This document shows positions 26,913 through 62,771 of a stretch of 64,000 nucleotides of DNA, in pieces. The DNA lies in assembly GCA_022750115.1 (NCBI GenBank), contig JAKIWI010000001.1:83490-147489 (forward strand). Direction: 5' to 3'. Under the pieces are notes generated by a model, which did no database searches, was not told where the DNA came from, and saw nothing but the letters and a program-made list of their open reading frames with translations. The position numbers and the translations under genes were made by a program. This stretch comes from Thermoplasmata archaeon (GTDB lineage Archaea; Thermoplasmatota; Thermoplasmata; Lutacidiplasmatales; UBA184). The first letter of the stretch is position 1. Every line of letters begins with the position of its first letter.

Positions 26913-29135
26913 GTGACCGCAGTTGCTCCCCGAGGCCGCCGCATCCGATCGTCTCGATTTCGCCGCTCGGGCGCCCACCGCAACCAGCGGGGAGTGTCCG
27001 ACGTGGTCGCCACGATCCTGCTCCTCGCGCTCACGGTGACGCTGTTCGCCTCGGTGTTCTTCTTCATCAACACTTTCCCGCACCCGCCGGCACAGCCGGC
27101 CAACCAGTTCTCGGCGTCGCTCGCTTACAACGGCGCGAACATCATCTCGGTTCACGTCCTCCACCTCGCCGGCCCGACCATCGCTGGTGTCTCGACGACT
27201 CAGACCGCGATCTACCTCCAGTCCGCCGCCAAGCCGGCGTTGTTCGCCACTCCGTTCACCATCGCCCAGGGCCTGAACGGCTCGTCGGTCTGGTCGCTCG
27301 GCCAGACCTGGACCCTCAACCTGACGTCGTACGGCTTGACGGTCGGCGACAACCTGACGATCTCCATCATCACGCAGTCGCAGCTGCTGTTCCGCATCAC
27401 CCTCCCCGGCTCGAACCCGAACATGCCGCCGATCTTCTCGCAGGCGGGCATCAACCCGGCGAGCCCCGGCCCCAACCAGGCGTTCACGGTGTTCGTCGGC
27501 ATCACCGACAACAACCTCCGGTTCAGCTCGGTGTTCGTGAACCTCTCCCAGATCCCTGGAGTTGTGGGGAGCGGCCTCCACCAGATGGCCCTGCTCGCGA
27601 CGTCCGGCCTGTGGATCTACACGCTCGCCGCCGGTTCGATCTCGACCGGCACCTACTACGTGTTCGTGAACGCGACCGACAACTCGAGCCTGCACAACTC
27701 GATCGCGATCCCCGTCTTCATCTCGAACACCGGCGGCGGCTCCTCCGCGCTCCAGGTCCAGGTCGGCGCGAACAACACGGCGCCCGTCGCGGGACTGCCC
27801 GTCTTGCTCCAAGCCGAAGTCACCAACACGGGCGGCTCGGCCGCGACCGTCGTCGTTCAGTTCTACGTTGGCGGCAACACCGTCGGCGGCCCGCAATCGC
27901 AGGCGATCCTGGGCGGCGGCACCGCGCTCTACACGCAGGCGTGGACTCCGGCGGCCGTCGGAACGTCCTCGGTCCAGGCGCTTGCCACGATGACCGGCTC
28001 CTCGGCGGAGAGCGGGATCTCGATTACGGTCTTCCCGAAGATCCTGTTCATCGCCCACGCCTACCCGGCGGCCTCGTTCCCCGCGTCGAACACGAGCGCG
28101 AACATCGCCCAGATGCTCACCGCCGACGGGGTCCCGTACACCGCGATGTCCGTCGCCTGCGGTTCGACCCTCCCGGCCACGGCGACGCTGAGGTTGTACG
28201 GCGTCGTGATCATCGATTTCGGGAGCGCGACGGGCCTCGCCTGCGCCCAAGTCCCGCCCGGCGCCGCGGAACAGACGAAGATCACCGGCGCCGCCACGAC
28301 GACCAACTTCTGGTTGATCGGCTCGAACGCGTTCACCGCGACGGCGTGCACGAGCTACTCCGCGGCGTTCCAGACCCAATTCGGCCTGGCGACCTCGGGG
28401 ACTTGCACGACCTCGAAGTCGGCGAGCACGTCGCTCACCTACACCTCGTCCGCGACGTCCCCCGCGCTGCGGTCCGACGGGATCACCGCGGGGACACTCT
28501 CCCTCAACCAGACGTACGCGGCCTCGGCGGCGTTCCAGCCGTACTTCGCGCTGACCCTCCAAGCCTCCGGCCACGCCTGGCTGAAGGACTCCGGAGCGCT
28601 GACCGTAGGCGCGTACACGAACGCCTCGACCGACCATCAGCAGCTGATCCTCGCCACCGACCCGACGCTGATCGCGACCAAGACCCCGAACAACCAGGCG
28701 TGGGGTACGGGGACGGGCGCCGACGCGGCCGTGCTCTACAACGGCGTCAACTTCCTTTGCGGGCTGTCCACCACGACGAACGCCGGCCGTGGTCTCCTCG
28801 ACCAAGGCGTCGCCGGCGTCGTGACGATCGGCTTGAAGCACAACCTCCCCACGCAGTTCTACGTGGCGGTCCGGACGAATGGACCGTCGGGCGGGGGCGT
28901 CTTCGCGACCCTGTACGTCGGCGGCTCGCCGGCGTACTATCTCGGGTCCCTCGTCACGGGGCTCGGCACGCCCGGCGGCGCCGGCGCGTGGACGTGGATC
29001 GCATTCAACTGGAGCGCGCCGGCCGCGGGCAACTTCGTGCTGTCGGTGGGGATCACGACGGAGAACCCTGACTACTATGCGGCGAACAACCTGATCGCGA
29101 TCTCGTTCTACAACACCGCGACCGTGTTCACGTAG
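26913..29135 (+). CDS. large secreted pilin-like surface protein with archaeal class III (type IV prepilin-like) signal peptide
   Basis: The start upstream of the hydrophobic helix is uncertain. A GTG at 26913 would give a basic 27 aa leader (VTAVAPRGRRIRSSRFRRSGAHRNQRG) before the predicted cleavage site G|VSDVVATILLLALTVTLFASVFFFINTF. About 700 aa follow, beta-rich with dense NxS/T sequons. The upstream 125 codons of the ORF are probably non-coding. Confidence 0.55.
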   Translation: MTAVAPRGRRIRSSRFRRSGAHRNQRGVSDVVATILLLALTVTLFASVFFFINTFPHPPAQPANQFSASLAYNGANIISVHVLHLAGPTIAGVSTTQTAIYLQSAAKPALFATPFTIAQGLNGSSVWSLGQTWTLNLTSYGLTVGDNLTISIITQSQLLFRITLPGSNPNMPPIFSQAGINPASPGPNQAFTVFVGITDNNLRFSSVFVNLSQIPGVVGSGLHQMALLATSGLWIYTLAAGSISTGTYYVFVNATDNSSLHNSIAIPVFISNTGGGSSALQVQVGANNTAPVAGLPVLLQAEVTNTGGSAATVVVQFYVGGNTVGGPQSQAILGGGTALYTQAWTPAAVGTSSVQALATMTGSSAESGISITVFPKILFIAHAYPAASFPASNTSANIAQMLTADGVPYTAMSVACGSTLPATATLRLYGVVIIDFGSATGLACAQVPPGAAEQTKITGAATTTNFWLIGSNAFTATACTSYSAAFQTQFGLATSGTCTTSKSASTSLTYTSSATSPALRSDGITAGTLSLNQTYAASAAFQPYFALTLQASGHAWLKDSGALTVGAYTNASTDHQQLILATDPTLIATKTPNNQAWGTGTGADAAVLYNGVNFLCGLSTTTNAGRGLLDQGVAGVVTIGLKHNLPTQFYVAVRTNGPSGGGVFATLYVGGSPAYYLGSLVTGLGTPGGAGAWTWIAFNWSAPAAGNFVLSVGITTENPDYYAANNLIAISFYNTATVFT

Positions 29136-29219
29136 CGACCGGCGCCTCGCCGTCGCGACGCGGCTCCCGCGGCCCGCCCGGGCGCACCGTTACAAGCCGA
29201 AAGGGCCTCCCGGCCCGCG

Positions 29220-31841: not shown

Positions 31842-31849
31842 GCGCGCGC

Positions 31850-34162
31850 CTACCGGTCCATCCGACGGACCACGACGATGGCGACCGCGATCATCGCGGC
31901 GCCCCCGAGGACCGCGAGCGCCACGACGGCCGTGTCCGCGCCGATCGAGCTCGACGAGCCGCCGTTGGTGCTCGGGTGGGTCGTCTCGTTGTTGCTCGCG
32001 GCGGCCGCACTGACGGAGACGTGGAACTGCTGGCTCACGGAGATCCCGCGGTGGTCGACGACGGTGAACGTCGCATCGTACGAACCGGCGGACGCGTAGG
32101 CGTGGGTCGCGTCGATGGTCGCCGCGGCGTGCTGGTCCCCGAAGTCCCAGACCGAGGTGTACGGAGCCTCGCCGCCATTGACGGTTCCCGAGAACGAGAC
32201 GCTCGAGTTCGCGACGGCGGTCGGCGGGGCCGTCCCGCTCGCGCTCAGGCCCGGCCCGACGGTGATGTTGACCCAGGAGGTGTGCAGGATCCCGCGCGCG
32301 TCGGTGACGGTGAAGGTCGTGGTGAGCGCGCCGGGGATCGTGAACGTGTGGTTCACGGCCGTTCCGGTCGCGGTCGACCCGTCGCCGAACGCCCACGCCG
32401 TCGTGTACGGCAGCACGCCGCCGGACATCGATGAACTGAACCAGACCTGGAGCGGGGCCGCTCCGTCGGTGGCCGACGCCACGACGCCGCTCCCCAGAGG
32501 CGCGATGACCAGAGGCTCCGCCACGATCGTGAACGTGTCGTTCCAGCTCGCCCCGGCCGAGTCCGTGACGTTCACGGTGGCGGTGAACGTTCCGGACGCC
32601 CCGTAGACGAACGACGTCGTGTCCGACGTGCTGGTGTTCGTCCCGGCGCCGGCCGACCACAGGACGTCGTAGGGCGCGCTGCCGCCCGACGCGGCGAAGG
32701 AGCATTGGACCGTGAGCGGCACGACCCCGGTCGTCGGGAACGCCTGCGCCGACGCCGTCAAGGGCGCGATCACGCGGACGAAGAACGACGTGCTGGCGGA
32801 GCTACCGTTCGCATCGTTCGCCCAGACCGTCGCCATGTAGCGTCCGGGAGTCCCGTAGAAGTTGCTGGTCGCGGGCTCGGTCGAGGAGTTGCCGTCGCCG
32901 AACTCCCACAGGTAGCTGATGGTGCCGCTTCCGCCGACCGCGGTGGCGTCAAACCCGACCCGGATCGACCCGGTGGAGTACGACGCCGTGTCGTTCGCCG
33001 TGAGGTTGACCCCCGCATACACCCAGGTGTCGGTGAGGTCGCCGAGCGCGCCAGATCCTCCCCAGAGAATGACCTGTGCGGCGGACGGGTCGTAGGCCAT
33101 CTCGCCGAAGAATCGGGGGAGCGGTGCGTCGTTCGGGTGGCTGGGGGTCCACTGGTCGCCGGAGAACAGCCAGGTGTCCCCGAACGTCTGGGCGCCGCTT
33201 CCTCCGAACAGAACCAGGGAGGAGATGGCCACGTCATAGGAGAAGCTCGCCATCGACCGAGCGCTCGGGTGAACCGATTCGGTGAGCTGGGTCCAGTTGT
33301 TGGCGTGGAACGCCCAGGTGTCGGAGTCGGTCCCGGCGGCGTAGTCGTCGCCGCCGAACAGGATGACTTGGTTGTCCGCCGCATCGTAGCGGAGCGCGAC
33401 GTTCTCCCGGGCCGACGGAGCGGAGCTGAGGCTGACCTGGGTCCAGTTCCCGCCAACGAACGTCCACGTGTCGCCAATGGCGCTCCCGGCGCAGCCACCG
33501 AAGAGGACCATCTCGTTGTCGGCCCCGTCCCAGGTCATCGCCGACGCCCAGCGGGCCGACGGATGGGTCGAGGGGGTGAGTTGCGTCCAATTGCCGTGGA
33601 GGAACGTCCAGGTGTCGCCGTAGTCGCCGCCGTTGCCCGAGCCGCCGAACAGCAGGACGTAGCCGTCGATCGGGTCCCAGGCGAGCGTGGAGTGGTCGCG
33701 AGCGGTCGGGGAGGCCTTCGGGTGGATCTGGGTCCAGCTCCCGTTCGCGTAGGTCCACGTGTCGCCGAGGTAGCCGCCTCCCGACCCGTAGCCGCCGAAC
33801 ATGAGCAGGTAGTGGTCGATGGGGTCGTAGGCGAACGAGCGGCCGTAACTTCGCGGAGCGGGGGACTTCCCCGAGGTGTTCGTCACGTTGTCCCACCCGG
33901 GAACGCCGGTGGCGGTCGCGTTTTGGCCCGGGCCGATCGCGCCCGTGGCGGAGCGGAGCGAAGCATGGGAGATCGCGGGGGACGGAGCAGCGAGGGCCGA
34001 GGCCGCCGCCAGTCGGGCGGGGGCCCCCGTCACGATGGAGTGAGCTGCCGAGTGGGGGATGGGCGCGAACGCCGAGGCCCCGAGCAGCGTGCCGAGCGCG
34101 AGGAGGACAAGAACCGAGGTCGACCAGGCAAGAGTTCGTCGGCCAAAGATCGATGTCGTCAC
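31850..34162 (-). CDS. secreted Kelch-repeat beta-propeller protein with PKD domains and C-terminal TM anchor
   Basis: Signal peptide present. Five or six Kelch-like repeats (..LFGGxGxxxxxGDTWTF..NWTQ..). Four PKD-like repeats (..WEFGDGN.., ..WAFGDGS.., ..WDFGDQ..). C-terminal TM helix. Confidence 0.7.
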   Translation of the reverse strand: MTTSIFGRRTLAWSTSVLVLLALGTLLGASAFAPIPHSAAHSIVTGAPARLAAASALAAPSPAISHASLRSATGAIGPGQNATATGVPGWDNVTNTSGKSPAPRSYGRSFAYDPIDHYLLMFGGYGSGGGYLGDTWTYANGSWTQIHPKASPTARDHSTLAWDPIDGYVLLFGGSGNGGDYGDTWTFLHGNWTQLTPSTHPSARWASAMTWDGADNEMVLFGGCAGSAIGDTWTFVGGNWTQVSLSSAPSARENVALRYDAADNQVILFGGDDYAAGTDSDTWAFHANNWTQLTESVHPSARSMASFSYDVAISSLVLFGGSGAQTFGDTWLFSGDQWTPSHPNDAPLPRFFGEMAYDPSAAQVILWGGSGALGDLTDTWVYAGVNLTANDTASYSTGSIRVGFDATAVGGSGTISYLWEFGDGNSSTEPATSNFYGTPGRYMATVWANDANGSSASTSFFVRVIAPLTASAQAFPTTGVVPLTVQCSFAASGGSAPYDVLWSAGAGTNTSTSDTTSFVYGASGTFTATVNVTDSAGASWNDTFTIVAEPLVIAPLGSGVVASATDGAAPLQVWFSSSMSGGVLPYTTAWAFGDGSTATGTAVNHTFTIPGALTTTFTVTDARGILHTSWVNITVGPGLSASGTAPPTAVANSSVSFSGTVNGGEAPYTSVWDFGDQHAAATIDATHAYASAGSYDATFTVVDHRGISVSQQFHVSVSAAAASNNETTHPSTNGGSSSSIGADTAVVALAVLGGAAMIAVAIVVVRRMDR

Positions 34163-34259: not shown

Positions 34260-35354
34260 TCAGCTCCCGCCGGACTTCAGGGGGGTGCCGGCGCCGGGGC
34301 TCAGCGGAGCTCCGCACTTCCAGCAGTTCTTCTCATCCGGGTACACGACAGCGCCGCACTTGGGACAACTCGACTCGGCCCGACGGGCCGCTCCGGTTAC
34401 GGCGGGCGAGGCGCTCGGCGGGGGAGTCCCCCCGGTCGAGCTCGGCGGGGCTCCGGTCGTCGGAGGGATCATCTCCGCGTCCGAGGCGGCCCGCTGCGCT
34501 TTGCGACGCGCTTCGCGGCTCTTCAGGAATACGTAGACGAGGAGGGCGAGGAAGAAAACGATCCCCGGATAGAACAGGATGTCGATGGCGGTCTGGGGCA
34601 GCAGGAGCTGGTACGTCGTCGCCCACGTGCCGGTGATCGGGCCCTGCACCGCCCCGTAGGCGTTCGGGACGGCGAGGAAGATCCACTGGTAGGTCGTGTT
34701 CGTCTTGTTGGCGCTCGCGTTGAACGTCGTCGCGCGCGCGAGGAGCCCCATCTGCCACCACCAGATGTTCGGGCCAGGGAGGTTCACGTGGAACGTCACG
34801 GGCGTCGGGGACGCGCTCACCGTCGTGACGTTCTGACCGACCGGGTAGAACGGGTAGCCGGAGCCGCAGAACGGAGAGGAGTTCCCCGTCGCGCCTGGGC
34901 AGGTACTGACGTAGACCCACAGTTGGTACGGCGTGTAGTTCGTCGGAAGTCGATTCGGATACAGGTCGACGGTGAACGCGAAAGCCGAGCCGCCGGCCCC
35001 GTTGTAGGGCGTGGCGGTGGCGTTGGTCAGAACCGGTGCACCGGTGGAGGTGTTGCCGTGATCCGTCGAGGAGTTCACGGCGGGGCTCGGCGTCATCGCC
35101 TCGGATGTGAGGCCGTAGTTGACGATCGGCGCCGCGAGGAGCAGCGCGGCGATACCCAGGATCGCGAGGTGCTTGGGGACCTTCCAGCCGAGGTAGATCG
35201 GAAGCCCGAGCCCGGCAAGGAGGAACGTCGGGATCGCGAAGTACGGCCCGAGGTAGAAGAACGACGCCGCGAGGGTCGCGAGGGCGATCAGGAACAGGAC
35301 GATCTTGCCGGCGCGGGTCTGCACCAGCGCCTTCAAGCTGACCGCTCGCGGCAC
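34260..35354 (-). CDS. membrane protein with extracytoplasmic sequon-rich domain and C-terminal cytoplasmic zinc ribbon
   Basis: Start reassigned to a GTG at 35354, which lies 26 nt downstream of a TATA box. Two N-terminal TM helices, an external domain, a C-terminal TM helix, then a CPKCGAVVYPDEKNCWKCGAPL zinc ribbon. Confidence 0.5.
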   Translation of the reverse strand: MPRAVSLKALVQTRAGKIVLFLIALATLAASFFYLGPYFAIPTFLLAGLGLPIYLGWKVPKHLAILGIAALLLAAPIVNYGLTSEAMTPSPAVNSSTDHGNTSTGAPVLTNATATPYNGAGGSAFAFTVDLYPNRLPTNYTPYQLWVYVSTCPGATGNSSPFCGSGYPFYPVGQNVTTVSASPTPVTFHVNLPGPNIWWWQMGLLARATTFNASANKTNTTYQWIFLAVPNAYGAVQGPITGTWATTYQLLLPQTAIDILFYPGIVFFLALLVYVFLKSREARRKAQRAASDAEMIPPTTGAPPSSTGGTPPPSASPAVTGAARRAESSCPKCGAVVYPDEKNCWKCGAPLSPGAGTPLKSGGS

Positions 35355-47864: not shown

Positions 47865-48989
47865 ATGTCGGAGGCCCTCGAAGGAGGGAGCGTGTTGGGT
47901 CGGGGGGAAGCGGCGATCGATGGACCGAGCCTTGGAATCCTGATGACGGTGTTCCACCGCGCGGGGTTCTATCGCGACGCGCTCGAGAGCGTTGCCGCCC
48001 AATCCGGTTCGCTTCCGCCCGTCGAGCTGGTCGTGGTCTCGAGCTCGGACATGTCGGTCGATGTGCCCGCGACGCTTCGAGCGCGAGGCTGGAAGTGCCA
48101 GGTCCTGAAGAACGACTCCGTGGGGGAAGGGCCGTTCCTCGCTCCAGGGTTGGAGCGACTTGGAAGCGACTTCATCCTCCCGCTCGACGACGATGACATC
48201 TGGGAGCCGGGGCGACTTGCGCACGTCGCGGAGGTCCTTCGGCAACACCCCCGGGCTTCGTACTATCACAACGGGCAGTCGTTCGTGGACGCGCTGGGAG
48301 CCCCCTTGCCCCCGGACCGGGCGCTGCGAGGGCTGCGCCGGCTCTCGGGCGTGCCGCAAGGAGGCCTTCGGGCCTTGAGTCGCGAAGACCTCCGACGTCA
48401 CCGCGGTGGGCTGAGTCGGTGGGGATCGGTGTTCAACAACAGCTCCGTCGCCATCCGTCGACGCGCGCTCACCTCCTGCCTCGACGAGCTGAGCCGAGCC
48501 GAATGGTTGTTCGACCTGTTCATGTTCTATGCTGGAGTCTGCGATTGCGAACAGGTCCTGTTCGACTCGTCCCCCCAGACACGGTATCGCATCCACGCCT
48601 GGAACCGCTCGCGGGGGGCGCAGACTCTCGGGCGATTCGAGTCGGCGACCCCCTCGCGCAGCCGGGAGGGTCGGCTCGCGACGCTGGGGGTCCTTCACGA
48701 GATGGTCGCGCGCAGGGGTCCGTCGTGGCTCCTCGACTGGGTCGAACACGATCAGGTCTACTTCGACGCCCTCGAGGCGCTCCGGGAGGGAGACTCCGAC
48801 CGACTGGAGACTGCGCGCCGGGTCGGCCGACTGATTCGATACGTGGGCTACTCGGACCCACTCATGAACCTCGTTCTGAGTCTCACCTCGCTCGCCCAGC
48901 TCGCGGCGCCTCAGTTGGTCAGTCGAGCGTATTGGACGAAACACGGGGTCGACCGTCGCGCCGGCTCGCCCGCCTCGGAAGCCAGGTGA
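47865..48989 (+). CDS. glycosyltransferase family 2-like protein
   Basis: GT-A N-terminus (LGILMTVFHRAGFYRDALESV) with a DDDD acidic motif (ILPLDDDDIWEP). Confidence 0.55.
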   Translation: MSEALEGGSVLGRGEAAIDGPSLGILMTVFHRAGFYRDALESVAAQSGSLPPVELVVVSSSDMSVDVPATLRARGWKCQVLKNDSVGEGPFLAPGLERLGSDFILPLDDDDIWEPGRLAHVAEVLRQHPRASYYHNGQSFVDALGAPLPPDRALRGLRRLSGVPQGGLRALSREDLRRHRGGLSRWGSVFNNSSVAIRRRALTSCLDELSRAEWLFDLFMFYAGVCDCEQVLFDSSPQTRYRIHAWNRSRGAQTLGRFESATPSRSREGRLATLGVLHEMVARRGPSWLLDWVEHDQVYFDALEALREGDSDRLETARRVGRLIRYVGYSDPLMNLVLSLTSLAQLAAPQLVSRAYWTKHGVDRRAGSPASEAR

Positions 48990-51900
48990 GGACGACCAGG
49001 ACCGCGATCAAGCCCACCCCTTGGACCCAGGATGCCTCAAGGCCCAGGATCAGGTAGGTCCGAAAGTGGAACGTGACCACGGCTCCGGGATCCCCACCGA
49101 CGAGTTCCACGACGTTCGCAAGCGGGGTACCCGACAGCACGCGGACCGCCGCGCCTGACGTGGCGGACGGGACCCAGAGGGAGTTCTCGGGGAATCCCAG
49201 TACGGCGAACTCTGGACTGCTCTTATTCGCACCGCCAGCGGCCGACACCACGACGTCTCCGCTGGGAGTCACCCGACCGTCGACCGACACCGCCGGCGCC
49301 GAGGTGGGAGAGGTGCCGGCCGAGTCGATCAAGAGTCGCACCGACGGTGGGCGGACGACCTGGGCCGATGCGATGCACGAAGTTCCGCCGACGATGCCGA
49401 CGGAGACATTCGCCACGGGAATGCGGGTCTCGCCCGGTGGCACGGCGCTGGCGTTGAAGCCGGGATTCGACTCGTCGGTGCTCGAGTTCCCGAAGAGGAT
49501 GGCACTCGAGGAGGTGGAACCGCCCGCGCTGACCGTCGCGCCTGCCGAGCTGGCATTCCACGTGAGGACCAAGGCGAACGATTGGTTCGGCGCGAGCGAG
49601 GCCGGCAGAAACACGTTCTCCCAGGCGAACGGCACCGAGTCCGAGCTCGCGCTGAGGCTGAGGCTCGCGGTGCCACCCGCACCGGGCTGGAACACCTCCG
49701 CCAACAGACCGAGGCGGCCGACCGAGAGCTGGATATTGACCCAATCTTGGGAAGCGAGCGACGAGAACGAGCCGTTCAACCCGACGAAGGCGGGAGCCGA
49801 GTCCATGCCAGTCGCGTAGAGTGCCGGAAAGGTGCCGTCGGCGGTACAGAACCCGCTCGCGCTCCGATTCGTCGCGCTCCCCCAATCTTGGGCGCTGTCG
49901 GTTGAGCGTTCGACATCGCCGCTGATGATGACGGTGTTGGCGCCCCAGGCGTACTGCGTGCCGTTGGACGTGCAGAAGCCCGATCGACACGGCACGGCGG
50001 ACCAGGATCCGTCGGCATCGACGACGCTCGCCGCGCTTCCGGCGGGCGCCGAAATCGTCGACGACGGGCCGGCGACGACGGTAGGGTGGAGTCGCCAGCC
50101 GGGGAGCGATGAGTTGGGGTCCCAAACGGCGCTCGCCAGGCTTGCCGCCCAGCTCGGGGGCCCACTCCGAACGCTTCCGAGAAGCGCGAACGCCGTGGCC
50201 GGATCCGAAGTGTCAATCGAGGTGATCGAGCTCGTGGCCCATCCGAGGGGCAGCGCGTGGGGCACAGAGTAGACCGTGAACCTGCCCACGGCCGATCCGG
50301 GGCCGAGCTGGGTGGGAAGGGCCGCGAGGAACGCCCGCCAGTCGATGGGGGCCCCGTTGGGCGCCTCGTTCATCGCGGGTGCGGAGACGTTGGCAAACGG
50401 GTTCACGACGACGGACGCGACGTGGAGGCTGTCGAGCAGCGCCGAGAGGTTGGTCGGTGTCCCGAGGGCAAGGTCCTCCTCCAACGCGGCGGCCAGGATC
50501 CCGGTGTCCGCCTCGACGATCGGGTACGGGATGTACGAGGCCAAGAGGTTCGAGGTATCCAGGAACTGCCGGCCGCCCAGGTTCAGGAACGGACCCTCCT
50601 GCGAGCTCATCGGAACGATGAGAACGAAGGAGTTGGGCCCGTTCGCCGGCGTTCCGAAATACCGGGCGAGGGCGGAGAATGACGGAGGAACCGCCACGGT
50701 GTCGGCGTTCGGCCCGGAGGTTTGGTAGACGTCCCCGACCACGAACGGTGCGGCGCTGAGGAGGAGGAGCACGATGACGGCGGCGGCAACTAGGACGGAC
50801 GGGCTCCGAGTCGCGGGGCGCGACCCGATCGCCTCAGCGGATGGGGGCGACGCCGGGCTACGCCCCGCCGGCACACGTTCGCGCAGGGTCTCGTACAGTC
50901 CGACGACGGGAACAAGGAGGTAGACGGGTCCGATGATGTAGTACGCTGCAACGAGGACGAGGAAGGGCCCGCCGAGAGCGAGCAGCCTGAGATTCCAGCT
51001 GGCGATCGGTTCTGTCCCGGCACCGATCAAGAACGGAACGGCGAAGAGCCCGACCGTGTAGACGAACAACGACCCCGGGCTCGTGCGGAGGCGCACGGCC
51101 CCGAGCACGATGAGGAGCGGGAACACGACCGCTGCCGCCGCGACGACCGGCAGGATCGCGACCCAGGGGTAGGCGGAGGGCGTGGCCCGCAGCCAGGAGA
51201 ATGCCGTCAGGGTCACGACCGGGTACGGTCCCCAGGTCCACGCGGCGGCGTGGTAGATCTGTACGAGATTCGTGGGATTGACGTAATTGTTGTTCGAGTA
51301 CGCTACTTTCGGAAGGGCCAGCAGCGGGACGAACCCCCACGCCTCGAGACCAAGGCCGACCCCGAGCAGCACCGCGGTCTTTCCCACGCGTCGGCGCAAG
51401 CGGACGAGCGGGGACGGTCGCCGGAGCCACACGGCGGCGACCCCGCCGAGTAGGATGAACGTCAACGGAACGGCAAACGACGAGACGACGCCGGGAGCGA
51501 GGTAGGTTCCCAAAAGCACGACCGCCGCGGCGAACCGAAGGGGAATTCGGGTCTCGAACGCGACCCGGACGACGAGGGCCATCGCCCAGGGCAGGAACGC
51601 CAGGAACGGCGCCCATCCTTCCACATGCCAAAACGTGACCGTCAGGGTGAACGGATTGTACACGTACACGAGCGCGGCCGCCCCGAACACCCATCCAGGC
51701 AGTGAGCGGGGGGTCCCGCGCAGCCCCTCGATGCTGCGGAGCAGAACGACGATCCCAGCGGCCGCAAGTCCGACGAAGATGGCGAGCAAAAATCTCTGGC
51801 TCACCCAGTCGGGTGAGCCGAGGGACTCGAACGCCCGAAGCGTCGCGTCGAGGTAGAAATTCGGGGTGAAATCTGGGACGGGGAAGCTGGAGGAATACAG

Positions 51901-52212
51901 GTAGCTGTACGGGACGAACGGAGTGTCGTTGAAGGAAAACGGCTGGACCGTTCGCACCGAATCCTGACCGTAGAGCAGCTCGCCGTACGGTCGGCCCCAC
52001 AGGAACGGCCCGACCGCGGCCACCACGACGTAGGTCCACGGCGAACGGGCAAAACTCGCCAGCGCGCCTATCAGGAGCGCAACGAGACGAGGGGTTGCGC
52101 GGCCAGAGTTTCCCGGATGCGGTTCCCCCACAGATTCGGTCGGCTCGTCCGAAGGTTCCGTCCCCGAGCGCGTGGGGCTGGAGGCCGGGGTGTCGGGGGA
52201 GCTGATTTCCAC
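48919..52212 (-). CDS. giant polytopic membrane protein, GT-C-like putative glycosyltransferase (AftD / DUF3367-like architecture)
   Basis: About 1100 aa. A block of about 11 N-terminal TM helices. A large extracytoplasmic sequon-rich C-terminal region of about 600 aa. A final C-terminal TM helix. Start reassigned to a GTG near 52212; the upstream 100 codons of the ORF are Arg-rich. Family assignment is from architecture only. Confidence 0.45.
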   Translation of the reverse strand: MEISSPDTPASSPTRSGTEPSDEPTESVGEPHPGNSGRATPRLVALLIGALASFARSPWTYVVVAAVGPFLWGRPYGELLYGQDSVRTVQPFSFNDTPFVPYSYLYSSSFPVPDFTPNFYLDATLRAFESLGSPDWVSQRFLLAIFVGLAAAGIVVLLRSIEGLRGTPRSLPGWVFGAAALVYVYNPFTLTVTFWHVEGWAPFLAFLPWAMALVVRVAFETRIPLRFAAAVVLLGTYLAPGVVSSFAVPLTFILLGGVAAVWLRRPSPLVRLRRRVGKTAVLLGVGLGLEAWGFVPLLALPKVAYSNNNYVNPTNLVQIYHAAAWTWGPYPVVTLTAFSWLRATPSAYPWVAILPVVAAAAVVFPLLIVLGAVRLRTSPGSLFVYTVGLFAVPFLIGAGTEPIASWNLRLLALGGPFLVLVAAYYIIGPVYLLVPVVGLYETLRERVPAGRSPASPPSAEAIGSRPATRSPSVLVAAAVIVLLLLSAAPFVVGDVYQTSGPNADTVAVPPSFSALARYFGTPANGPNSFVLIVPMSSQEGPFLNLGGRQFLDTSNLLASYIPYPIVEADTGILAAALEEDLALGTPTNLSALLDSLHVASVVVNPFANVSAPAMNEAPNGAPIDWRAFLAALPTQLGPGSAVGRFTVYSVPHALPLGWATSSITSIDTSDPATAFALLGSVRSGPPSWAASLASAVWDPNSSLPGWRLHPTVVAGPSSTISAPAGSAASVVDADGSWSAVPCRSGFCTSNGTQYAWGANTVIISGDVERSTDSAQDWGSATNRSASGFCTADGTFPALYATGMDSAPAFVGLNGSFSSLASQDWVNIQLSVGRLGLLAEVFQPGAGGTASLSLSASSDSVPFAWENVFLPASLAPNQSFALVLTWNASSAGATVSAGGSTSSSAILFGNSSTDESNPGFNASAVPPGETRIPVANVSVGIVGGTSCIASAQVVRPPSVRLLIDSAGTSPTSAPAVSVDGRVTPSGDVVVSAAGGANKSSPEFAVLGFPENSLWVPSATSGAAVRVLSGTPLANVVELVGGDPGAVVTFHFRTYLILGLEASWVQGVGLIAVLVVLTWLPRRASRRDGRPRVSSNTLD

Positions 52213-52240
52213 GGGACGACCCGAACACTCGGTCGCACGC

Positions 52241-52246
52241 TTATCA
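52241..52246. promoter_or_regulatory. shared bidirectional TATA-like element (TTATCA / TGATAA) between divergent genes
   Basis: It lies 27 nt from the minus-strand GTG (52212) and 34 nt from the plus-strand GTG (52281). Confidence 0.3.
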
Positions 52247-52280
52247 CGGTTCGGCCCGTCCGGAACTCCGGAGAACCCGC

Positions 52281-53288
52281 GTGCGTTTCGCCATCGTTTG
52301 TGACCCGCCCGAACGCGTGACCGGCGGCATCGAACGTCACGCTCGCAGCCTGTCGGAAGAGCTGGCGCGCAGGGGCCACACCACCGTCGGGATCGCCCCG
52401 GCTGAAGTGTCGAAGGACTCCCTTCGGGGGTTCGACTGGGTCGTCTTCGAGGGGGTACGAAGGCTCGTCTTGCTCCGTCACCTTCGGTCGATGCCCCGCG
52501 GGCAGCGTCTCGCACTGTTCACCCATGGTTCCTTCCTCGAGGAGACTCACCCGACCGAGATCCGGAACGCTGGAGGACGATCACCGAGCCCGACCGTGCG
52601 TGCTCGGGCCGCCTACGACCGCACACTCGGTCGGGCCGTGTTTGGGCGGTTCGACCGTGTGTTCGTTCTGACCGAGTCGGAACGCGACGACATCATCCCA
52701 TTCCTAGATCTCTCGCCAAGTCGCGTCCACGTCAACCCGCTCTTCATTTCGGCAGAATTCCAACACGCGGTCGGGAGCCCTCCCCTGCCATCTCCCGCGC
52801 CAACGCCCTACGTTTGCGCAGTCGGCCGCATTGAACCCCGCAAGAACTTTGCCCGACTTCTTTCGGCCGTCGCCCCACTTCCGGTTCGTCTTCTCCTGGC
52901 AGGTCAGGACCGGGGGGCGCTCGCGCAACTTCGAGAGTTCTCGACCGCCGCGCACCTCGACGAGCGGTGGCGCTATCTAGGACGGGTCAGCGAGACCGAG
53001 AAGGTCGCCCTGCTTCGAGGCGCACGATGCGTCGTCGTGTCCTCTTTCCTGGAGGGGGTGCCCACCGTCGCGCTCGAGGCTCGCTCCCTGGGTCGCATCG
53101 TAGTGCTCTCGGGGCTCGCGTACGGGCCGGAGGGACCGGGGGTGGTTCGGAGCCCCGCCACCGTCGAAGGGCTGCGGAGTGCGATCGGGCAGTCGATCCG
53201 AGCGGACGACGTCCCTCCATCCCGACCGCCCGGAGTGGAGGAGAGCACGGAGGCGTTCCTGCGTGATCTCCAGGCGCCGGCGTCGTAG
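52281..53288 (+). CDS. glycosyltransferase family 4
   Basis: 335 aa, GT-B fold with the EX7E region (..VVSSFLEGVPTVALEARSLGRIVV..). Confidence 0.75.
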   Translation: MRFAIVCDPPERVTGGIERHARSLSEELARRGHTTVGIAPAEVSKDSLRGFDWVVFEGVRRLVLLRHLRSMPRGQRLALFTHGSFLEETHPTEIRNAGGRSPSPTVRARAAYDRTLGRAVFGRFDRVFVLTESERDDIIPFLDLSPSRVHVNPLFISAEFQHAVGSPPLPSPAPTPYVCAVGRIEPRKNFARLLSAVAPLPVRLLLAGQDRGALAQLREFSTAAHLDERWRYLGRVSETEKVALLRGARCVVVSSFLEGVPTVALEARSLGRIVVLSGLAYGPEGPGVVRSPATVEGLRSAIGQSIRADDVPPSRPPGVEESTEAFLRDLQAPAS

Positions 53289-57438: not shown

Positions 57439-58209
57439 GTGACCGAATCGGTCCGGGTGGGCGGCGGGCGGACGATGGCCTATGGCCACCCGCACGACCT
57501 CGCGGGGATTCTCGAGGTGTTCGTCATGGACGTCTATCGCGCTGACGAGCTGCCCCGGGGGGCACTGGTGATCGACCTTGGCGCGGGCCTGGGGGATTAC
57601 ACGGTCGCCGCCGGACGTGCCGTCGGGCCGGGGGGCTTCGTAATCGCGCTCGAGCCGAGCCCGACGGACTTCGCCCGGCTCGCGGAAAACGTCCGAGACT
57701 CGGGTCTCGCCAACGTCGTGTGCGTTTGTGGGGCGCTGGGTCGAGAGGGGGAGCGCCTCCGCCTGCGATTCAAGGAGCTCGAGTTCGAGGCGGTCGCCCT
57801 CGGGCTCGAGACGCTTCTGCGGCAGGCGGGCCTCGACATCCCCCAGGCGCTCGGGCGCCGGATCTACCTCAAGATCGATATCGAAGGGGCGGAGGTCGAC
57901 GCGCTCGGGCGGCTCGAACCCCTCCTGCCCTCGGTCGAGCTGGTTGCCATCGAGCTCCACGGAACCAAGGCCGCGGTCGACCGCATCCTGCTCCCCCTTC
58001 GGTTCGAGTTCCGACGCCTCACCCGCTTCCAGTACCTCTCGCGCTCGCTTCGGTTCGTGGTCCGACATCCGGTCGCCGCGGTCGACCTGTGGCGCCGCTA
58101 CCGGGCCTCCGACGAGTTCTCCGGGATGGGCAAGATCCTGCGAGGGATCGAGATCTCGGCGTCCGACTCGCTCATCGTCGGAACGTACCAGCGCGCGGGT
58201 TCGCCCTGA
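57439..58209 (+). CDS. FkbM-family methyltransferase
   Basis: 256 aa with SAM motif I (VIDLGAGLGDYTV) and an FkbM-like C-terminus. Confidence 0.65.
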   Translation: MTESVRVGGGRTMAYGHPHDLAGILEVFVMDVYRADELPRGALVIDLGAGLGDYTVAAGRAVGPGGFVIALEPSPTDFARLAENVRDSGLANVVCVCGALGREGERLRLRFKELEFEAVALGLETLLRQAGLDIPQALGRRIYLKIDIEGAEVDALGRLEPLLPSVELVAIELHGTKAAVDRILLPLRFEFRRLTRFQYLSRSLRFVVRHPVAAVDLWRRYRASDEFSGMGKILRGIEISASDSLIVGTYQRAGSP

Positions 58210-58326
58210 GGCGGCGCGCCAACTCCCGAGATCGGGAGGATTCGCGGCGGGTCGTTCCGGAGGCCCGCAAACCCTGCCGCGCTACCGACGCCCCTTTATG
58301 GCGCGCCGCCGACAGGGAGCGTTCGT

Positions 58327-59100
58327 ATGTCCCCGAAGCGCTCGCATCCCCGGGACCCGCTCGTGATCGGGCAGGTCGCGGCGCGACTGGCACTCGAGTG
58401 GACATTTCGGCCGCTGCTCCGCCCCAGCCTCGACGAGTTCCGAGGCGCGGCCCGCACCCAAGACACCGTCGCCCACGGCTTGCTTGACGACCCCCGCGGG
58501 GAATCGACCCGAAACATCCCCCGGTACCGGGCGGAGTTCGACGAACTCGTCGCGTCGATGGCGGGTCCCTTGGCCGCGCACTATCCCCCTCACTGGCGGA
58601 TCGAGCCGGAGCCGGGGTTTCTCCTCTACGGTCTCGTTCGAAGCCGAAGCCCCTCCCTGGTGGTCGAGACTGGGGTGGCGGACGGCTTCTCGTCACGGTT
58701 GATCCTCGAAGCGCTGCGCCGGAACGGTTCGGGGAGGCTGGTGAGCGTGGACCGCCGAGACGACGTGGGGGCGCTTGTCCCGCCGAACCTGCGACCTTCC
58801 TGGGAGCTCACCATCCTCGGGCGGGGGCGCCGGTACTCCGGCCTACGGGCCTTGTTCTCAAGTACGGGGCCCGTCGACATGTTCCTACACGATAGCGCCC
58901 ACACCTACCGCCACCAGCTCCGTGAATACCGCGCCGCGTGGCCCAACCTGCGTCCCGCCGGGCTGCTCTTGTCGGACGATGCCGATGCCTCCTTCGCCTT
59001 CCTGGATTTCGCGCGCTCGGTGGGCGGTCGGCCCGACGTTCTGGTGAGCCGAACTCGAGTCTTCGGCGTACTGCCGCGCGCTGGGGCGGCTGCCACCTAG
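58327..59100 (+). CDS. class I SAM-dependent O-methyltransferase-like protein (CmcI/TylF-like)
   Basis: 257 aa. Motif I is LVVETGVADGFSS. The acidic HDSAHTY region is typical of the macrocin-O-methyltransferase / cephalosporin-hydroxylase-type family. Confidence 0.55.
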   Translation: MSPKRSHPRDPLVIGQVAARLALEWTFRPLLRPSLDEFRGAARTQDTVAHGLLDDPRGESTRNIPRYRAEFDELVASMAGPLAAHYPPHWRIEPEPGFLLYGLVRSRSPSLVVETGVADGFSSRLILEALRRNGSGRLVSVDRRDDVGALVPPNLRPSWELTILGRGRRYSGLRALFSSTGPVDMFLHDSAHTYRHQLREYRAAWPNLRPAGLLLSDDADASFAFLDFARSVGGRPDVLVSRTRVFGVLPRAGAAAT

Positions 59101-59143: not shown

Positions 59144-62100
59144 CTACTGGGTCACCGCTCCGCAGAACGGACAGACGAGGTACTCGGGCGGGATCTCCTT
59201 GCCGCAGTTCGAGCACGCCTTCATCGGCGCGACGGGCGGCGAGGGCGACGGGGCCCCCACGGCAGCGGCCGGGGTCGGCGGAGGAGCCAGCGTCGGGGTC
59301 GACGCGCCGGACTTCATGGGAGCGGCTCGAGCGGGTGCGGGAGCGGCGGGCGGGGCCCCGCCCGCGCTTGGTCCGCCGCCCTTCTTGGGGGTGGAGGCGG
59401 CGGTGGGTGCGGCGCCGCCGGGCGGCATCGCCTGGTCCGTGGTCTCCGACCCTTCGGGCGGGGCGGTCATCCCGGCGCGCGAACCCTGCGATTGCTGGGA
59501 CTTCCACTGGCTGAACGGAAGGTACGTCGGCTGGCGCTTCCACCAGTCCCAGAACGCGCCCTCGTTGTAGTTGGGCCCGAGCTCCTTGCGAGCGTCGCCG
59601 CGGAACCGCTCGACGAAGTCCCCGTACCCCTGGCGCTCCGGGTCCGTGGTCTCCGTCTCGCCCTTGCCGAGCAGCTGCGCAGCGCACTCGGGGCAGACCT
59701 GCGAAGTCGCCGGGATCGTGGAGCCGCACCGGCTGCAGCGGACGAGGTCGGACTCGAACTCCGCGCCGCACTTCGGGCACGTCGTCGCGTCCTCGGGGAT
59801 CAGGTTGCCGCACTCCCCGCACTCGACGAGCTTGCCCTTCGCCTGGCGGCGGAAGACGAACAGGATGCCGACGACCGCCGCGGCGGCCGCCGCGATGATG
59901 ACAATCAGCAGCCAGATCGGGATCAGACCGAGCAGCTTCTGCTCGTACCAGGGGAGCGGGCCGGCCGGGGGCGGCCCGACGGTGAACGCGTTGGTGACGT
60001 TGAGGGTCGCGATGCGGCCCTGGTGGTACGCCGTGACGGTCAGCGAGTAGACCCCGTTCGCCATCGATGACGGGAGCGCAAGCTCGACCACCTGGCCTTT
60101 CGAGGAGCTCGTCTGCGAGCTACTCAGGACGTACAGTCCGGCGGCCGATGACGCCGTGACGTTCAGCCACGCCGCCTGGCTGCCCGAATAGATCAGCGTC
60201 GCCGACGCGATGTAGCCGCTGCCCGGGGTGAGCTGTCCGCCGGGACCTGCGAACTTGAGCGTGATGTACGACGGCTCGATGATCTTGTTCGAGGCCGCCT
60301 CCGCAAGGCCCCCGATTGGGGCGATGCCGTGGTTCCAGATCACGATCGCCAGGAACGTCTGGTTGACCGGCGGGTGCGGGATGCCGGTGACGGACTCGTT
60401 CACGACCCAGGGGATCGTGACGTTCACGCTGGCACCGACCGCGAGGGGGGACTTCCCGGTGTGGTTGCCGAGGAGCGTCGTGTTCTCGGGGTGCGCCGTC
60501 GAACCGACCGCCTCGAGGGTGAGGCTGTAGTTCCCGACCGCGCCGGTCCCGATGTTCGAGATGAGGACGGTGAAGTTGGTGTACTCGCCGATCGCGAGCG
60601 TGTCGTTCGTGTTCGCAGTGCCGTTCCCGACCCCGACGCTCACGGTGGCGATCGCGGTCGAGAGCTCGGGCCGGTAGAGCGGGAAGACGGTCGGGGACTG
60701 GACGTCCGCCGACGCGGGGTTCATGACGGTCGGGTAGGGGGAGAGGCCGCCCGTGAACCACTCCGGCGCACCGGCGCGGCCACCCGAGACGGTCACCACG
60801 ACGTGGTAGCCGCCGAGGAACAGGCCGTCTTGGAGGGTGCCCAAGGTCAAGATGCCCGAGGCGAGGAGGAGGCCGGCGTAGCCCGTGTTCGGGTTCGTCT
60901 GACCGTACGCGGCGACGTTGTGCGCGGTATCCCACGCCGTGACGTAGCCCGCGAGCGCGGGGTCGGAGACCGCGAAGTTGTTGAGCGCGGTGGCGGTCGC
61001 GTTGTTCACCTGGCTCGCGTCGTAGGCGTAGAACGCCTCGGCGGTGCCGCCGGCGACCGGCTGGGATCCGGCGCCGAAGACGGGGATGAACATCCACCGG
61101 AACAGGTTCACGGTCGAGGTCGCGTCCGGCAGGATCGCCGAGATGTCGGTCGTGTTGGAGGGGTTCTCGGGCGTGCTGATCGAGAGGTTCCCGACGAACG
61201 CCTGGGCGTGGTTCTGGACGATGACCTTCTTCGAGGCCCACGGGAGCACGCCGGGCGGCGCGGTCGGGGGTCGCGGGAAGGGAGCGACCGGGTACCAGTT
61301 CACGTCGAGCGACGAGTCGACCGCCGTGAGCACGGTGCCCGTGCCGTCCGCGGTGACGTTGAACGAGGTGCCGGCGGTCAGGTCGATCTCGACGAGCGTG
61401 ATGGTGACCGGCGTGGCCGAGTTCGTGAATCCGAGGTCGACCGAGACGGCGCCGCTGGCCGCCCCCGCGAAGAACGCCGCGACGCCCTGGCTGTTGATCT
61501 GGGCGAGGGCGGCCGCGGGCAGCGCCACCGAGACGACGGTGCCGGCCGCGGGGTAGTCGATGGTGCCCAGGTTCACGGTCGGCGAGGTGAAGACGAACGA
61601 GTTCCCCGAGGTCGAGGACTCATCCACCGTCGCCGTGTAGTCGATCGTGACCGACCCCGCGGTGACGGTCCGGTAGAGCGAGTCGCGGAGGAGCGACAGC
61701 GGGTCGCTCGGCGTGGCGTACGACGCGAACGCATTGCTCTGGCCCGAGGAGATCGTGGCCGAGGTCGAGTCGTCGAGCGGGAGCGGCTCCGGGGCGCCCG
61801 ACTGCGTCCAGTTGTCGGCGTACGTGCGGGTCTCGCTCGTTCCGTCGAGGGTGAGTTGGCCGCCGGCGAGGACCGAGAGGGCGGGGGCGTACAGGCTGTC
61901 GTTCGTGGTGAGGGCGTTCTGGGGGATGCTCGTGTTCGGGAGGAGCGCGTTCTGAGGGTTCGGGCCGATGGTGGAGCTGTTGACCCACAGGCCGGCGCCG
62001 GCCCCGTAGACGTTGACCCAGCCGGCGAAGTCGAGGTTGCTCGCGTTGACGTACATCTGGCCGGGGGTCGAGACGTTCAGGGTCACCTTCGGGTAGGCGT

Positions 62101-62575
62101 TGAGGACCCCGAGGTCGTCCGTCAGGACGGAGCTCTCGAGCCAGACCGTCCCCTGGTCGCTGAACGTGTAGATGTGGCCGAGGCGGCTCGAGACCGAGCC
62201 GGTCGAGCCGATGTACTGGACGAAGGCGAACGTCGTCTGGAGGATGATGAGCTTGCCTCCGGGCAGGACCGTGACGTTCCCTCCCTGGTAGTAGAACTGG
62301 TGCGTGGCGGAGCCGGGGGCAATGACGTACGGCGAGTTCGCCGGGCCGACGATGAGGTCACCATGGGTGACCGCGGCCGCCCGCGGCGCGGCCGGAACGG
62401 CCGCGGAGGCGTGCGGGTACGGAACGCCGGTCGCGCCGGGCCCGTGGGCCGGGATGGCAAATAGGCTCGCGACGAGCACGAGGATCAGGAGCCCAAGAAC
62501 CCAGCGTCCGGTCGTTCGGCTGGTCGATAGCGCCGTCCCTCCCCCAAGTGGGGAGGGGACTGCAAAACGGTCCAC
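59144..62575 (-). CDS. giant cell-surface protein with signal peptide, sequon-rich ectodomain, one TM helix and cytoplasmic tail carrying three zinc ribbons
   Basis: 1143 aa. N-terminal signal peptide, then about 840 aa of beta-rich sequence with dense NxS/T sequons. A TM helix (LLGLIPIWLLIVIIAAAAAAVVGILFV). Cytoplasmic tail with CGECGx10CPKC, CSRCGx10CPEC and a terminal CSNCGx10CPFCG, plus a Pro/Ala-rich low-complexity spacer. Confidence 0.65.
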   Translation of the reverse strand: MDRFAVPSPLGGGTALSTSRTTGRWVLGLLILVLVASLFAIPAHGPGATGVPYPHASAAVPAAPRAAAVTHGDLIVGPANSPYVIAPGSATHQFYYQGGNVTVLPGGKLIILQTTFAFVQYIGSTGSVSSRLGHIYTFSDQGTVWLESSVLTDDLGVLNAYPKVTLNVSTPGQMYVNASNLDFAGWVNVYGAGAGLWVNSSTIGPNPQNALLPNTSIPQNALTTNDSLYAPALSVLAGGQLTLDGTSETRTYADNWTQSGAPEPLPLDDSTSATISSGQSNAFASYATPSDPLSLLRDSLYRTVTAGSVTIDYTATVDESSTSGNSFVFTSPTVNLGTIDYPAAGTVVSVALPAAALAQINSQGVAAFFAGAASGAVSVDLGFTNSATPVTITLVEIDLTAGTSFNVTADGTGTVLTAVDSSLDVNWYPVAPFPRPPTAPPGVLPWASKKVIVQNHAQAFVGNLSISTPENPSNTTDISAILPDATSTVNLFRWMFIPVFGAGSQPVAGGTAEAFYAYDASQVNNATATALNNFAVSDPALAGYVTAWDTAHNVAAYGQTNPNTGYAGLLLASGILTLGTLQDGLFLGGYHVVVTVSGGRAGAPEWFTGGLSPYPTVMNPASADVQSPTVFPLYRPELSTAIATVSVGVGNGTANTNDTLAIGEYTNFTVLISNIGTGAVGNYSLTLEAVGSTAHPENTTLLGNHTGKSPLAVGASVNVTIPWVVNESVTGIPHPPVNQTFLAIVIWNHGIAPIGGLAEAASNKIIEPSYITLKFAGPGGQLTPGSGYIASATLIYSGSQAAWLNVTASSAAGLYVLSSSQTSSSKGQVVELALPSSMANGVYSLTVTAYHQGRIATLNVTNAFTVGPPPAGPLPWYEQKLLGLIPIWLLIVIIAAAAAAVVGILFVFRRQAKGKLVECGECGNLIPEDATTCPKCGAEFESDLVRCSRCGSTIPATSQVCPECAAQLLGKGETETTDPERQGYGDFVERFRGDARKELGPNYNEGAFWDWWKRQPTYLPFSQWKSQQSQGSRAGMTAPPEGSETTDQAMPPGGAAPTAASTPKKGGGPSAGGAPPAAPAPARAAPMKSGASTPTLAPPPTPAAAVGAPSPSPPVAPMKACSNCGKEIPPEYLVCPFCGAVTQ

Positions 62576-62771
62576 GACCGAAATAAAGTGAAGGTCCCGG
62601 TATAAAAAACGTCGGGACGCGCCGGGCGAGGTTCCGCCCCCGTCGCGATGCGATTCCGACGACGACGGGAGAGCCCCAACGGCCGGCGACGTTCGGCTCT
62701 CGGCCGGGGAGCTGTATCTTTCGCGCCCGCCGATCGCGACGCTCCGTTCGGCGGCGCCCGTCGCTCGCGGG

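Follow-up and report, generated by a model that had tools for sequence, protein, structure and literature searches.

What does a very large exported protein need a long, cysteine-rich tail for? This question is raised by a gene on the minus strand (59144..62575) of a 64,000-nucleotide (nt) stretch of DNA from a soil-dwelling Thermoplasmata archaeon of the Lutacidiplasmatales (assembly GCA_022750115.1, contig JAKIWI010000001.1, positions 83,490 to 147,489), which was analyzed as a whole and is referred to here as the window. The encoded protein of 1143 amino acids (aa) ends in a tail of 233 aa carrying three zinc ribbons. Sequence features suggest that it represents a type I membrane-anchored envelope protein that is probably glycosylated. 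The folded modules of its tail were found to be more conserved than any other part of the protein, and the tail may accordingly be read, with a probability of roughly 45%, as a docking module for an intracellular partner.

Architecture and Topology of the Protein

The open reading frame (ORF) comprises 1143 codons and a stop codon, starts with GTG, and its N-terminus agrees with that of the homologue P0002. Only two hydrophobic segments were detected in a hydropathy scan, namely residues 25–43, belonging to a predicted Sec-type signal peptide or signal anchor, and residues 881–908, representing a predicted transmembrane (TM) helix. All 12 cysteines are located within the last 225 residues (positions 919/922/933/936, 947/950/961/964, and 1121/1124/1135/1138), corresponding to three C-x2-C-x10-C-x2-C units. 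In the Pfam search, Zn_Ribbon_1 (PF13240) matched three stretches of the protein (E = 1.4e-14; 53.7 bits compared to a cut-off of 25 bits) and DZR (PF12773) matched residues 919–964 (E = 7e-11; 42.6 bits, cut-off 27.3), while the terminal ribbon alone was recognized by Zn_Ribbon_1 with E = 2.6e-7 and 30.6 bits. Since the ribbons score well above the Pfam thresholds, the described architecture is present and does not represent a chance pattern. The 840-aa stretch of the ectodomain that was counted contains no cysteine and 22 NxS/T sequons, 2.3-fold more than the shuffled ectodomain (mean 9.6, standard deviation 2.7), and the tail contains none, a distribution bearing on the putative N-glycosylation of the protein.

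The orientation within the membrane was deduced from 46 orthologues. On average, 0.65 lysine and arginine residues are present in the 15 aa preceding the TM helix, compared to 3.07 in the 15 aa following it. At the median, the orthologues have no Cys in the ectodomain compared to 12 in the tail, with sequon densities of 2.8 and 0.39 per 100 aa, respectively. The basic n-region, the charge bias, and the distribution of sequons and cysteines thus point to an ectodomain outside and ribbons inside the cell. Based on the positive-inside rule and on both distributions, the predicted topology is N-out/C-in with cytoplasmic ribbons.

It is hardly conceivable that the Cys-rich region is instead extracellular and disulfide-bonded, or that the ORF results from an artefactual joining of two genes. 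The former is opposed by the charge bias across both hydrophobic segments, by the sequon counts of ectodomain and tail, and by the CPxCG knuckles, whose spacing argues for a zinc-binding cytoplasmic tail. Concerning the latter, the G+C content at third codon positions (GC3) is high throughout the gene (0.86–0.97, with the minimum in the final 103 codons), more than 130 proteins from independent assemblies share one succession of modules (TM helix, double ribbon, helical domain, terminal ribbon), and entries on long contigs consisting of the tail only are frameshift fragments; a fusion artefact is therefore excluded. Such short 3' fragments could wrongly pass for stand-alone tail proteins. Six short ‘zinc ribbon’ entries (P0034, P0203, P0221, P0238, P0242, and P0245), located on contigs that measure between 157 kb and 1.8 Mb and were in part assembled from long reads, are 3' pieces of this gene, and at least two of them (P0238 and P0245) contain internal frameshifts. 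The candidate stand-alone proteins on long contigs were rejected after inspection.

These results largely agree with the original prediction made for this DNA, which had described a signal peptide, a large ectodomain, one TM helix, and a three-ribbon tail; hydropathy, the Cys map, and Pfam bear this out. It had also placed the tail in the cytoplasm, as the charge, sequon, and Cys distributions support, and had proposed to check it for ribbons of the DZR type, which were found above the gathering threshold together with Zn_Ribbon_1. The two-gene fusion that it had considered as a possible objection is excluded by the shared layout and the GC3 values. Its Pro/Ala-rich spacer between the double and the terminal ribbon is correct for residues 1041–1117 only, residues 978–1040 being a conserved helical domain.

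Conservation and Structure of the Tail

To compare the parts of the protein, mean pairwise identity was calculated by region for 46 full-length orthologues from species-representative genomes. Values of 0.83, 0.72, and 0.74 were obtained for the double ribbon, the helical domain, and the terminal ribbon, respectively, compared to 0.29–0.39 for the three thirds of the ectodomain, 0.47 for the TM helix, and 0.29 for the Pro/Ala linker. No other part of the protein is as conserved as the folded tail modules, whose evolution is far slower than that of the ectodomain; this difference argues for a specific cytoplasmic interaction.

Across 43 diverse tails, the eight Cys of the double ribbon are invariant, as are F and W of the helical domain. 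Residues 978–1040 are almost invariant in an alignment of 18 homologues, following the pattern DPERQGY.DF..RFR..A.KELG.NY.EGAFWDWWKRQ.TY..FSQWK.QQ.QG.R.GM.APP. An AlphaFold2 (AF2) model of the tail, built with the alignment of the 43 tails, placed helices at residues 979–1002, 1005–1014, and 1021–1031, with predicted local distance difference test (pLDDT) values of 88–96 for the helical domain and 80–94 for the ribbons (approximately 80–87 for the double ribbon and 86–94 for the terminal ribbon). Values of 46–61 indicate that the Pro/Ala segment is disordered. This segment ranges from 37 to 103 aa (median 67) in 45 orthologues and is composed of 27% Ala, 25% Pro, and 13% Gly; both its variable length and its composition are characteristic of an entropic tether linking conserved folded modules.

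The helical domain matched no Pfam family even at E ≤ 10, and the NCBIfam search gave no meaningful match. As judged from sequence comparison, the module at residues 978–1040 is a previously undescribed small conserved domain. For the complete tail, comparison of its profile with the sequences of the PDB disclosed generic ribbon similarity only, the best match being RPA12 (E = 0.0023), and no Foldseek match of the tail model was obtained at E ≤ 0.001, so that the helical domain has no significant counterpart in the PDB by sequence or by fold. The NZF, ArnA, and ribosomal-protein ribbons listed by Foldseek (E > 1) were set aside as generic knuckle similarity.

An explanation requiring no partner would be that the fast-folding zinc ribbons serve as a stop-transfer plug, i.e., a topogenic lock that firmly anchors a very large exported protein and retains its C-terminus in the cell. 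The position of the double ribbon fits this explanation, as it begins 4–11 residues (median 8) past the TM helix in 46/46 orthologues, and the cassette invariably occurs on exported ectodomains of very large size. However, four other large surface proteins encoded in the window are anchored by a C-terminal TM segment with a short basic tail, indicating that a long tail is not needed for anchoring. Likewise, the invariant non-Cys residues, the conserved helical domain, and a distal ribbon on a tether of 37–103 aa would not be required for a plug. Anchoring as the sole task of the tail is therefore considered unlikely, albeit the least unlikely of the alternatives to docking on an intracellular partner.

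Two observations concern a possible relation to ubiquitin-binding fingers. In Pfam, zf_UBZ was found on the tail with E = 8e-5, just under its cut-off, and Foldseek listed the NZF finger of Trabid with a root-mean-square deviation of 0.8 but E > 1. The spacing C-x2-C-x10-C-x2-C is common to NZF/RanBP2-type fingers, and the NZF-like spacing of the ribbons is probably generic. Binding of a ubiquitin-like (SAMP-type) protein by the ribbons is nevertheless conceivable.

Distribution and Variants of the Family

A direct homology search retrieved approximately 20 proteins with lengths between 990 and 1240 aa, all originating from Thermoplasmata metagenome-assembled genomes (MAGs) and all featuring the same Pfam ribbon domains, except for one partial sequence. 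When 1.84 billion representatives were searched with a profile restricted to double ribbon and helical domain, 331 proteins were found at E ≤ 1e-10 and 119 at E ≤ 1e-30, with matches spanning nearly the whole profile and located near the C-terminus. The 119 proteins range from 113 to 3789 aa in length, and in nearly all of them the cassette directly follows a TM helix and lies 150–320 aa from the C-terminus, two cases being gene-call outliers. The layout of the tail was read in 137 sequences selected by a strict ribbon pattern. Wherever the sequence extends far enough upstream, the cassette comes directly after a TM helix, and nearly all tails comprise 150–320 aa with three ribbons.

Members carrying a name were assigned to Thermoplasmata, Methanomassiliicoccales, Candidatus Natronoplasma, or ‘Thermoplasmatota’; wherever matches carry a name, the superfamily is thus confined to Thermoplasmatota. 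A scan of one genome per GTDB species yielded at least 269 loci. The best 80 of these originate from 80 different isolates, including UBA184 and a Candidatus Lutacidiplasmatales MAG, and two of the 80 genome records carry only the label ‘bacterium’. The original prediction had regarded the zinc-ribbon tail as a family-level feature of this lineage, and its range proved to be wider, since the cassette recurs across Thermoplasmatota. Annotations in use for these proteins are ‘CARDB domain-containing protein’ and ‘zinc ribbon domain-containing protein’, as well as ‘RPABC4/Spt4’ or ‘ribosomal protein L40E’ in JGI data, meaning that the family is under-annotated or mis-annotated in the databases.

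The window family and a 1399-aa member from a low-G+C lineage were aligned by hhalign with a probability of 100% (E = 2.8e-70) from the N-terminal ectodomain to the helical domain, the extra length of the latter protein consisting of inserted CARDB repeats. Since homology covers ectodomain and tail, these proteins represent one envelope-protein superfamily rather than a mobile tail grafted onto unrelated proteins. By insertion of CARDB repeats, members grow to 3789 aa, the tail cassette always being C-terminal.

Two variants of the tail were distinguished. In the clade of the window protein, the third ribbon is located at the extreme C-terminus behind the Pro/Ala tether, whereas in distant clades, including the members with CARDB domains, it directly follows the helical domain and precedes a stretch rich in E, K, and P. 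These distant clades end in the conserved basic motif RRIVRRPxEKK..PKK (e.g., P0078, P0081, P0102, and P0113), which may serve as a short linear motif for binding or as a patch contacting lipid or nucleic acid, and which is missing in the window clade.

This motif also bears on the idea that the protein acts as a membrane-tethered regulator, its tail binding nucleic acid or the transcription machinery either at the membrane or after regulated proteolysis governed by the status of the ectodomain, which would amount to genuine outside-in signaling. The weak similarity to ribbons of RNA polymerase and TFS type, including the RPA12 match, and the names assigned by JGI point in the same direction. 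However, this similarity is limited to generic C4 knuckles without a significant fold match, and the window clade lacks the basic motif. In addition, the Pfam scan of the tail revealed no helix-turn-helix or OmpR-type DNA-binding domain, nor another DNA-binding domain, and no HxxxCxxC anti-sigma motif, the ribbons being plain C4; a linked protease was not noted either, although a BlaR1/BlaI-like gene pair lies at some distance upstream in part of the loci (see below). Regulation by the tail is therefore regarded as very unlikely.

The Ectodomain

The full-length AF2 model reached a mean pLDDT of 64, with most ectodomain blocks between 70 and 90. It predicts short, regularly spaced strands at approximately residues 74–250, resembling a solenoid, followed by mixed and beta-sandwich domains and by tandem beta-sandwiches at approximately residues 640–866. 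A CARDB match at residues 657–726 remained below the threshold (15.2 bits compared to 22.7; E = 0.026). The top 50 Foldseek matches of the full model in the PDB were generic tandem folds of the Ig, macroglobulin, and FnIII type with E-values of approximately 1e-8 and TM-scores of only about 0.1, and a fold assignment beyond a beta-sandwich stalk was accordingly dismissed as uninformative. Neither Pfam nor NCBIfam revealed an S-layer (surface layer) family in the protein, and none was present among these 50 PDB matches. In its general appearance, the ectodomain resembles a surface or S-layer-type glycoprotein of archaea.

Gene, Promoter, and Genomic Neighborhood

The window has a G+C content of approximately 69% overall (range 67–72%), which is the figure given for Lutacidiplasmatales (PMC9287336). 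A nine-nt TATA-like A/T box (TTTTTTATA) is located approximately 30 nt 5' of the GTG codon, a distance indicating a separate promoter and a leaderless, near-leaderless, or short-leader mRNA. Given the gap of 196 nt to the upstream gene and the convergent orientation of the downstream gene, the gene very probably forms its own transcription unit. With a GC3 of 0.94, it shares the top value of all long ORFs in the window; together with the strong TATA box, this is consistent with an abundant envelope protein.

An abundant protein would also suit a role as a homotypic organizer, in which ribbons and helical domain bind the tails of neighboring molecules and cluster the protein into an array from inside. 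The strong promoter and the high codon bias fit such an array-forming protein, the finding of one of the best 80 loci per isolate is consistent with a single conserved copy, and the conservation of the tail fits any specific protein–protein contact. Between immediate neighbors, however, a flexible tether of 37–103 aa would be unnecessary, and clustering by the tails themselves is judged distinctly unlikely, somewhat more so than mere anchoring and less so than a regulatory role.

The gene neighborhood was compared over 81 loci. A zinc-type alcohol dehydrogenase gene is located immediately upstream in 44 of the 61 loci having enough sequence, and an adenosylhomocysteinase gene immediately downstream in 43 of 45. 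In the window, two methyltransferase genes (57439..59100, plus strand), encoding an FkbM-type Methyltransf_21 and a Methyltransf_24 protein, lie between the gene studied and the adenosylhomocysteinase gene, which directly follows in most relatives. Among the fetched loci, only two yielded homologues of the FkbM-type gene, and the related locus L001 features the same methyltransferase pair. The pair was thus rejected as a conserved partner and represents a sub-lineage insertion present in few relatives; it could have a lineage-specific function in glycan or protein methylation.

Further upstream, at a distance of 5–6 kb, a gene pair for a BlaR1-like M48/M56 peptidase and a BlaI/Penicillinase_R-type repressor was found to be conserved in the wider surroundings of approximately 40 loci (L001: 3362..4637). 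Scans of the window for tRNA and Rfam families revealed no RNA genes. An exact look-up of the 1143-aa sequence returned no existing record, and a neighboring protein of the window has a counterpart with 100% identity in Thermoplasmata MAG records of NCBI, one being GCA_022750205.1. The coordinates of all features are compiled in Table 1.

Table 1. Features of the 1143-aa protein, its gene, and other genes discussed (positions refer to the window).
Feature	Position	Strand	Basis
TATA-like box TTTTTTATA	62601..62609	-	Read from sequence
Complete coding sequence, 1143 aa	59144..62575	-	ORF list; GC3; N-terminus match to P0002
Residues 1–45, basic n-region and h-region 25–43, predicted Sec-type signal peptide or signal anchor	62441..62575	-	Hydropathy scan; h-regions aligned in homologues
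Residues 46–880, predicted beta-rich ectodomain of ~835 aa	59936..62440	-	Pfam; composition; AF2; Foldseek
Residues 881–908, predicted single TM helix, followed by RRQAKGK	59852..59935	-	Kyte-Doolittle up to 3.1; AF2 helix 887–912; positive-inside statistics
Residues 916–968, double zinc ribbon CGECG..CPKCG / CSRCG..CPECA	59672..59830	-	Pfam DZR; invariant Cys
Residues 978–1040, Trp/aromatic-rich three-helix domain	59456..59644	-	Alignment; AF2
Residues 1041–1117, disordered Pro/Ala/Gly-rich tether	59225..59455	-	Low pLDDT; low identity
Residues 1118–1143, C-terminal C4 zinc ribbon KACSNCGKEIPPEYLVCPFCGAVTQ	59147..59224	-	Pfam Zn_Ribbon_1; AF2
Adenosylhomocysteinase gene	56011-57243		Beyond methyltransferase pair
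Membrane protein, 364 aa, Pro-rich linker and single C-terminal ribbon CPKCGAVVYPDEKNCWKCG	34260..35354	-	Pfam; homologue alignment
Archaeal pilin_N and CARDB protein	26535-29135	+	Pfam
PQQ-like beta-propeller and four PKD domains	29220-31841	+	Pfam
Kelch propeller and four PKD domains	31850-34162	-	Pfam

Proposed Function and Comparison with Known Systems

The most economical inference from these findings is that the tail makes a specific and conserved protein–protein contact inside the cell, a protein–membrane contact being the alternative. In the mechanism proposed here, the Sec signal peptide would export the ectodomain, consisting of a solenoid-like head and Ig/CARDB-like stalk domains, until the single TM helix stops the transfer and leaves the tail in the cytoplasm. 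The double ribbon would thereby be held 4–11 residues from the inner membrane face, and the cassette would connect the envelope protein with a conserved partner located inside the cell or peripherally at the membrane, such as a cytoskeletal or divisome filament or a scaffold. Capture of this partner would be accomplished by the tethered terminal ribbon, comparable to the binding of FtsZ1 by the C4 ribbon of CdpC, and docking would provide a mechanical or positional link between the surface layer and the interior of the cell.

CdpC (HVO_0399, Pfam DUF7093), the membrane anchor of FtsZ1 in Haloferax volcanii, features a membrane-bound ribbon, a linker that is disordered, and, at its C-terminus, a C4 ribbon, which binds FtsZ1 directly and whose zinc ligands are essential; distant multi-ribbon relatives have been reported in all Thermoplasmatota classes (bioRxiv 10.64898/2026.07.16.738847). 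The tail studied here shares the succession of membrane-proximal ribbon, disordered linker, and C-terminal C4 ribbon. However, CdpC is a small, wholly cytoplasmic protein bound to the membrane by means of an amphipathic helix, whereas the module described here is the tail of an exported protein that possesses a genuine TM helix, a double ribbon, and, in addition, a helical domain.

Archaeal S-layer and cell-surface glycoproteins with a C-terminal TM anchor, e.g., the surface glycoprotein of haloarchaea, resemble the window protein in their signal peptide, their large, beta-rich, sequon-rich, and Cys-poor ectodomain, and their single C-terminal TM helix, and the strong promoter and high codon bias fit this likeness. 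The difference lies in the tail, which is structured, comprises 233 aa, and exceeds all other parts of the protein in conservation; to our knowledge, the cytoplasmic portion of known S-layer proteins amounts to a few residues only. DZR and Zn_Ribbon_1 are generic prokaryotic zinc-ribbon domains that often adjoin TM segments. The ribbons of the window protein, with two CxxC knuckles each, belong here by score, but these families cover the ribbon only, and the whole cassette is matched by no Pfam or NCBIfam model. The CARDB surface proteins of Thermoplasmatota, a name given by NCBI to distant members of this superfamily, are homologous over ectodomain and tail as shown by hhalign; the longer of them carry CARDB domains, whereas the corresponding match in the window protein is sub-threshold.

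A description of this cassette was not found in the searchable literature, and papers on the surface of Lutacidiplasmatales and Thermoplasmatales do not mention it. TM-anchored archaeal surface glycoproteins, C4 ribbons, and the ribbon–linker–ribbon layout of the CdpC type are already known. New are their fixed combination, the helical domain, the conservation throughout the phylum, and the cytoplasmic position on giant envelope proteins.

Several points weigh against a docking function. A linked gene for a cytoplasmic partner was not found in the 81 loci compared, the conserved neighbors being housekeeping genes only. DUF7093 is absent from the Pfam matches listed for the whole protein (E ≤ 1) and from the best 25 listed for the tail (E ≤ 10), so that the likeness to CdpC is one of layout, i.e., an analogy and not a membership. 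Furthermore, short basic tails suffice for other large surface proteins encoded in the window, the quality of the full-length AF2 model is only moderate, and the designation as a major envelope protein relies on the TATA box, GC3, and the finding of one locus per isolate among the best 80.

Docking on an intracellular partner is thus proposed tentatively. The original prediction had suggested outside-in coupling, for example to cytoskeletal or signaling partners, which may apply here. Within this interpretation, FtsZ or another cytoskeletal filament appears a rather doubtful candidate for the partner, proposed by analogy to CdpC. Equally speculative, and also rather improbable, is the broader notion of a Thermoplasmatota-wide transmembrane coupling device that would tie the principal envelope glycoproteins to FtsZ or to another internal filament or scaffold, the membrane-apposed double ribbon, the Trp-rich domain, and the tethered terminal ribbon forming the connection.

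Other Surface Proteins Encoded in the Window

The 364-aa membrane protein encoded at 34260..35354 had been expected by the original prediction to follow the same logic as the 1143-aa protein. This applies to its tethered terminal ribbon (CPKCGAVVYPDEKNCWKCG), which gave only a weak Pfam match (E = 2e-4, below the cut-off) and was kept in 65 of 66 homologues, Thermoplasmata where named; it does not apply to the remainder, since the protein belongs to a different family and has neither the double ribbon nor the helical domain. With two such proteins at hand, tethered cytoplasmic ribbons appear to be a device that this lineage uses repeatedly.

Clustered genes at 26535..34162 encode three large proteins with a predicted surface location (Table 1). 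In the PQQ-like and the Kelch proteins of this cluster, only a short basic tail (RRRRAPPPS and RRMDR, respectively) follows the terminal TM helix, compared to the 233 aa of the protein studied here. Another ORF of 1198 aa (48919..52515, minus strand) has no Pfam match and features a C-terminal hydrophobic segment with a basic tail. It adjoins genes for GT2 and GT1/GT4 glycosyltransferases (53408-54307 and 54435-55517), and in locus L001 a similar 1096-aa protein without a Pfam match is likewise encoded beside glycosyltransferases. This ORF may represent another envelope protein accompanied by its glycosylation genes.

Biological Significance

Many members of the Thermoplasmatota have neither a rigid cell wall nor an ordered S-layer. 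For these archaea, the cassette would offer a concrete handle on cell shape, on the positioning of the divisome, and on the organization of the surface glycoprotein coat. The tail module is small, soluble, and tractable in recombinant form, and could thus be used as bait for the internal connections of the envelope. If the tail turned out to be an anchoring plug only, the finding would shrink to an improvement of annotation. If, on the other hand, the coupling device should exist, it would represent a prokaryotic counterpart of integrin-type or band-3/ankyrin-type links and, in its logic, a TM-anchored relative of CdpC.

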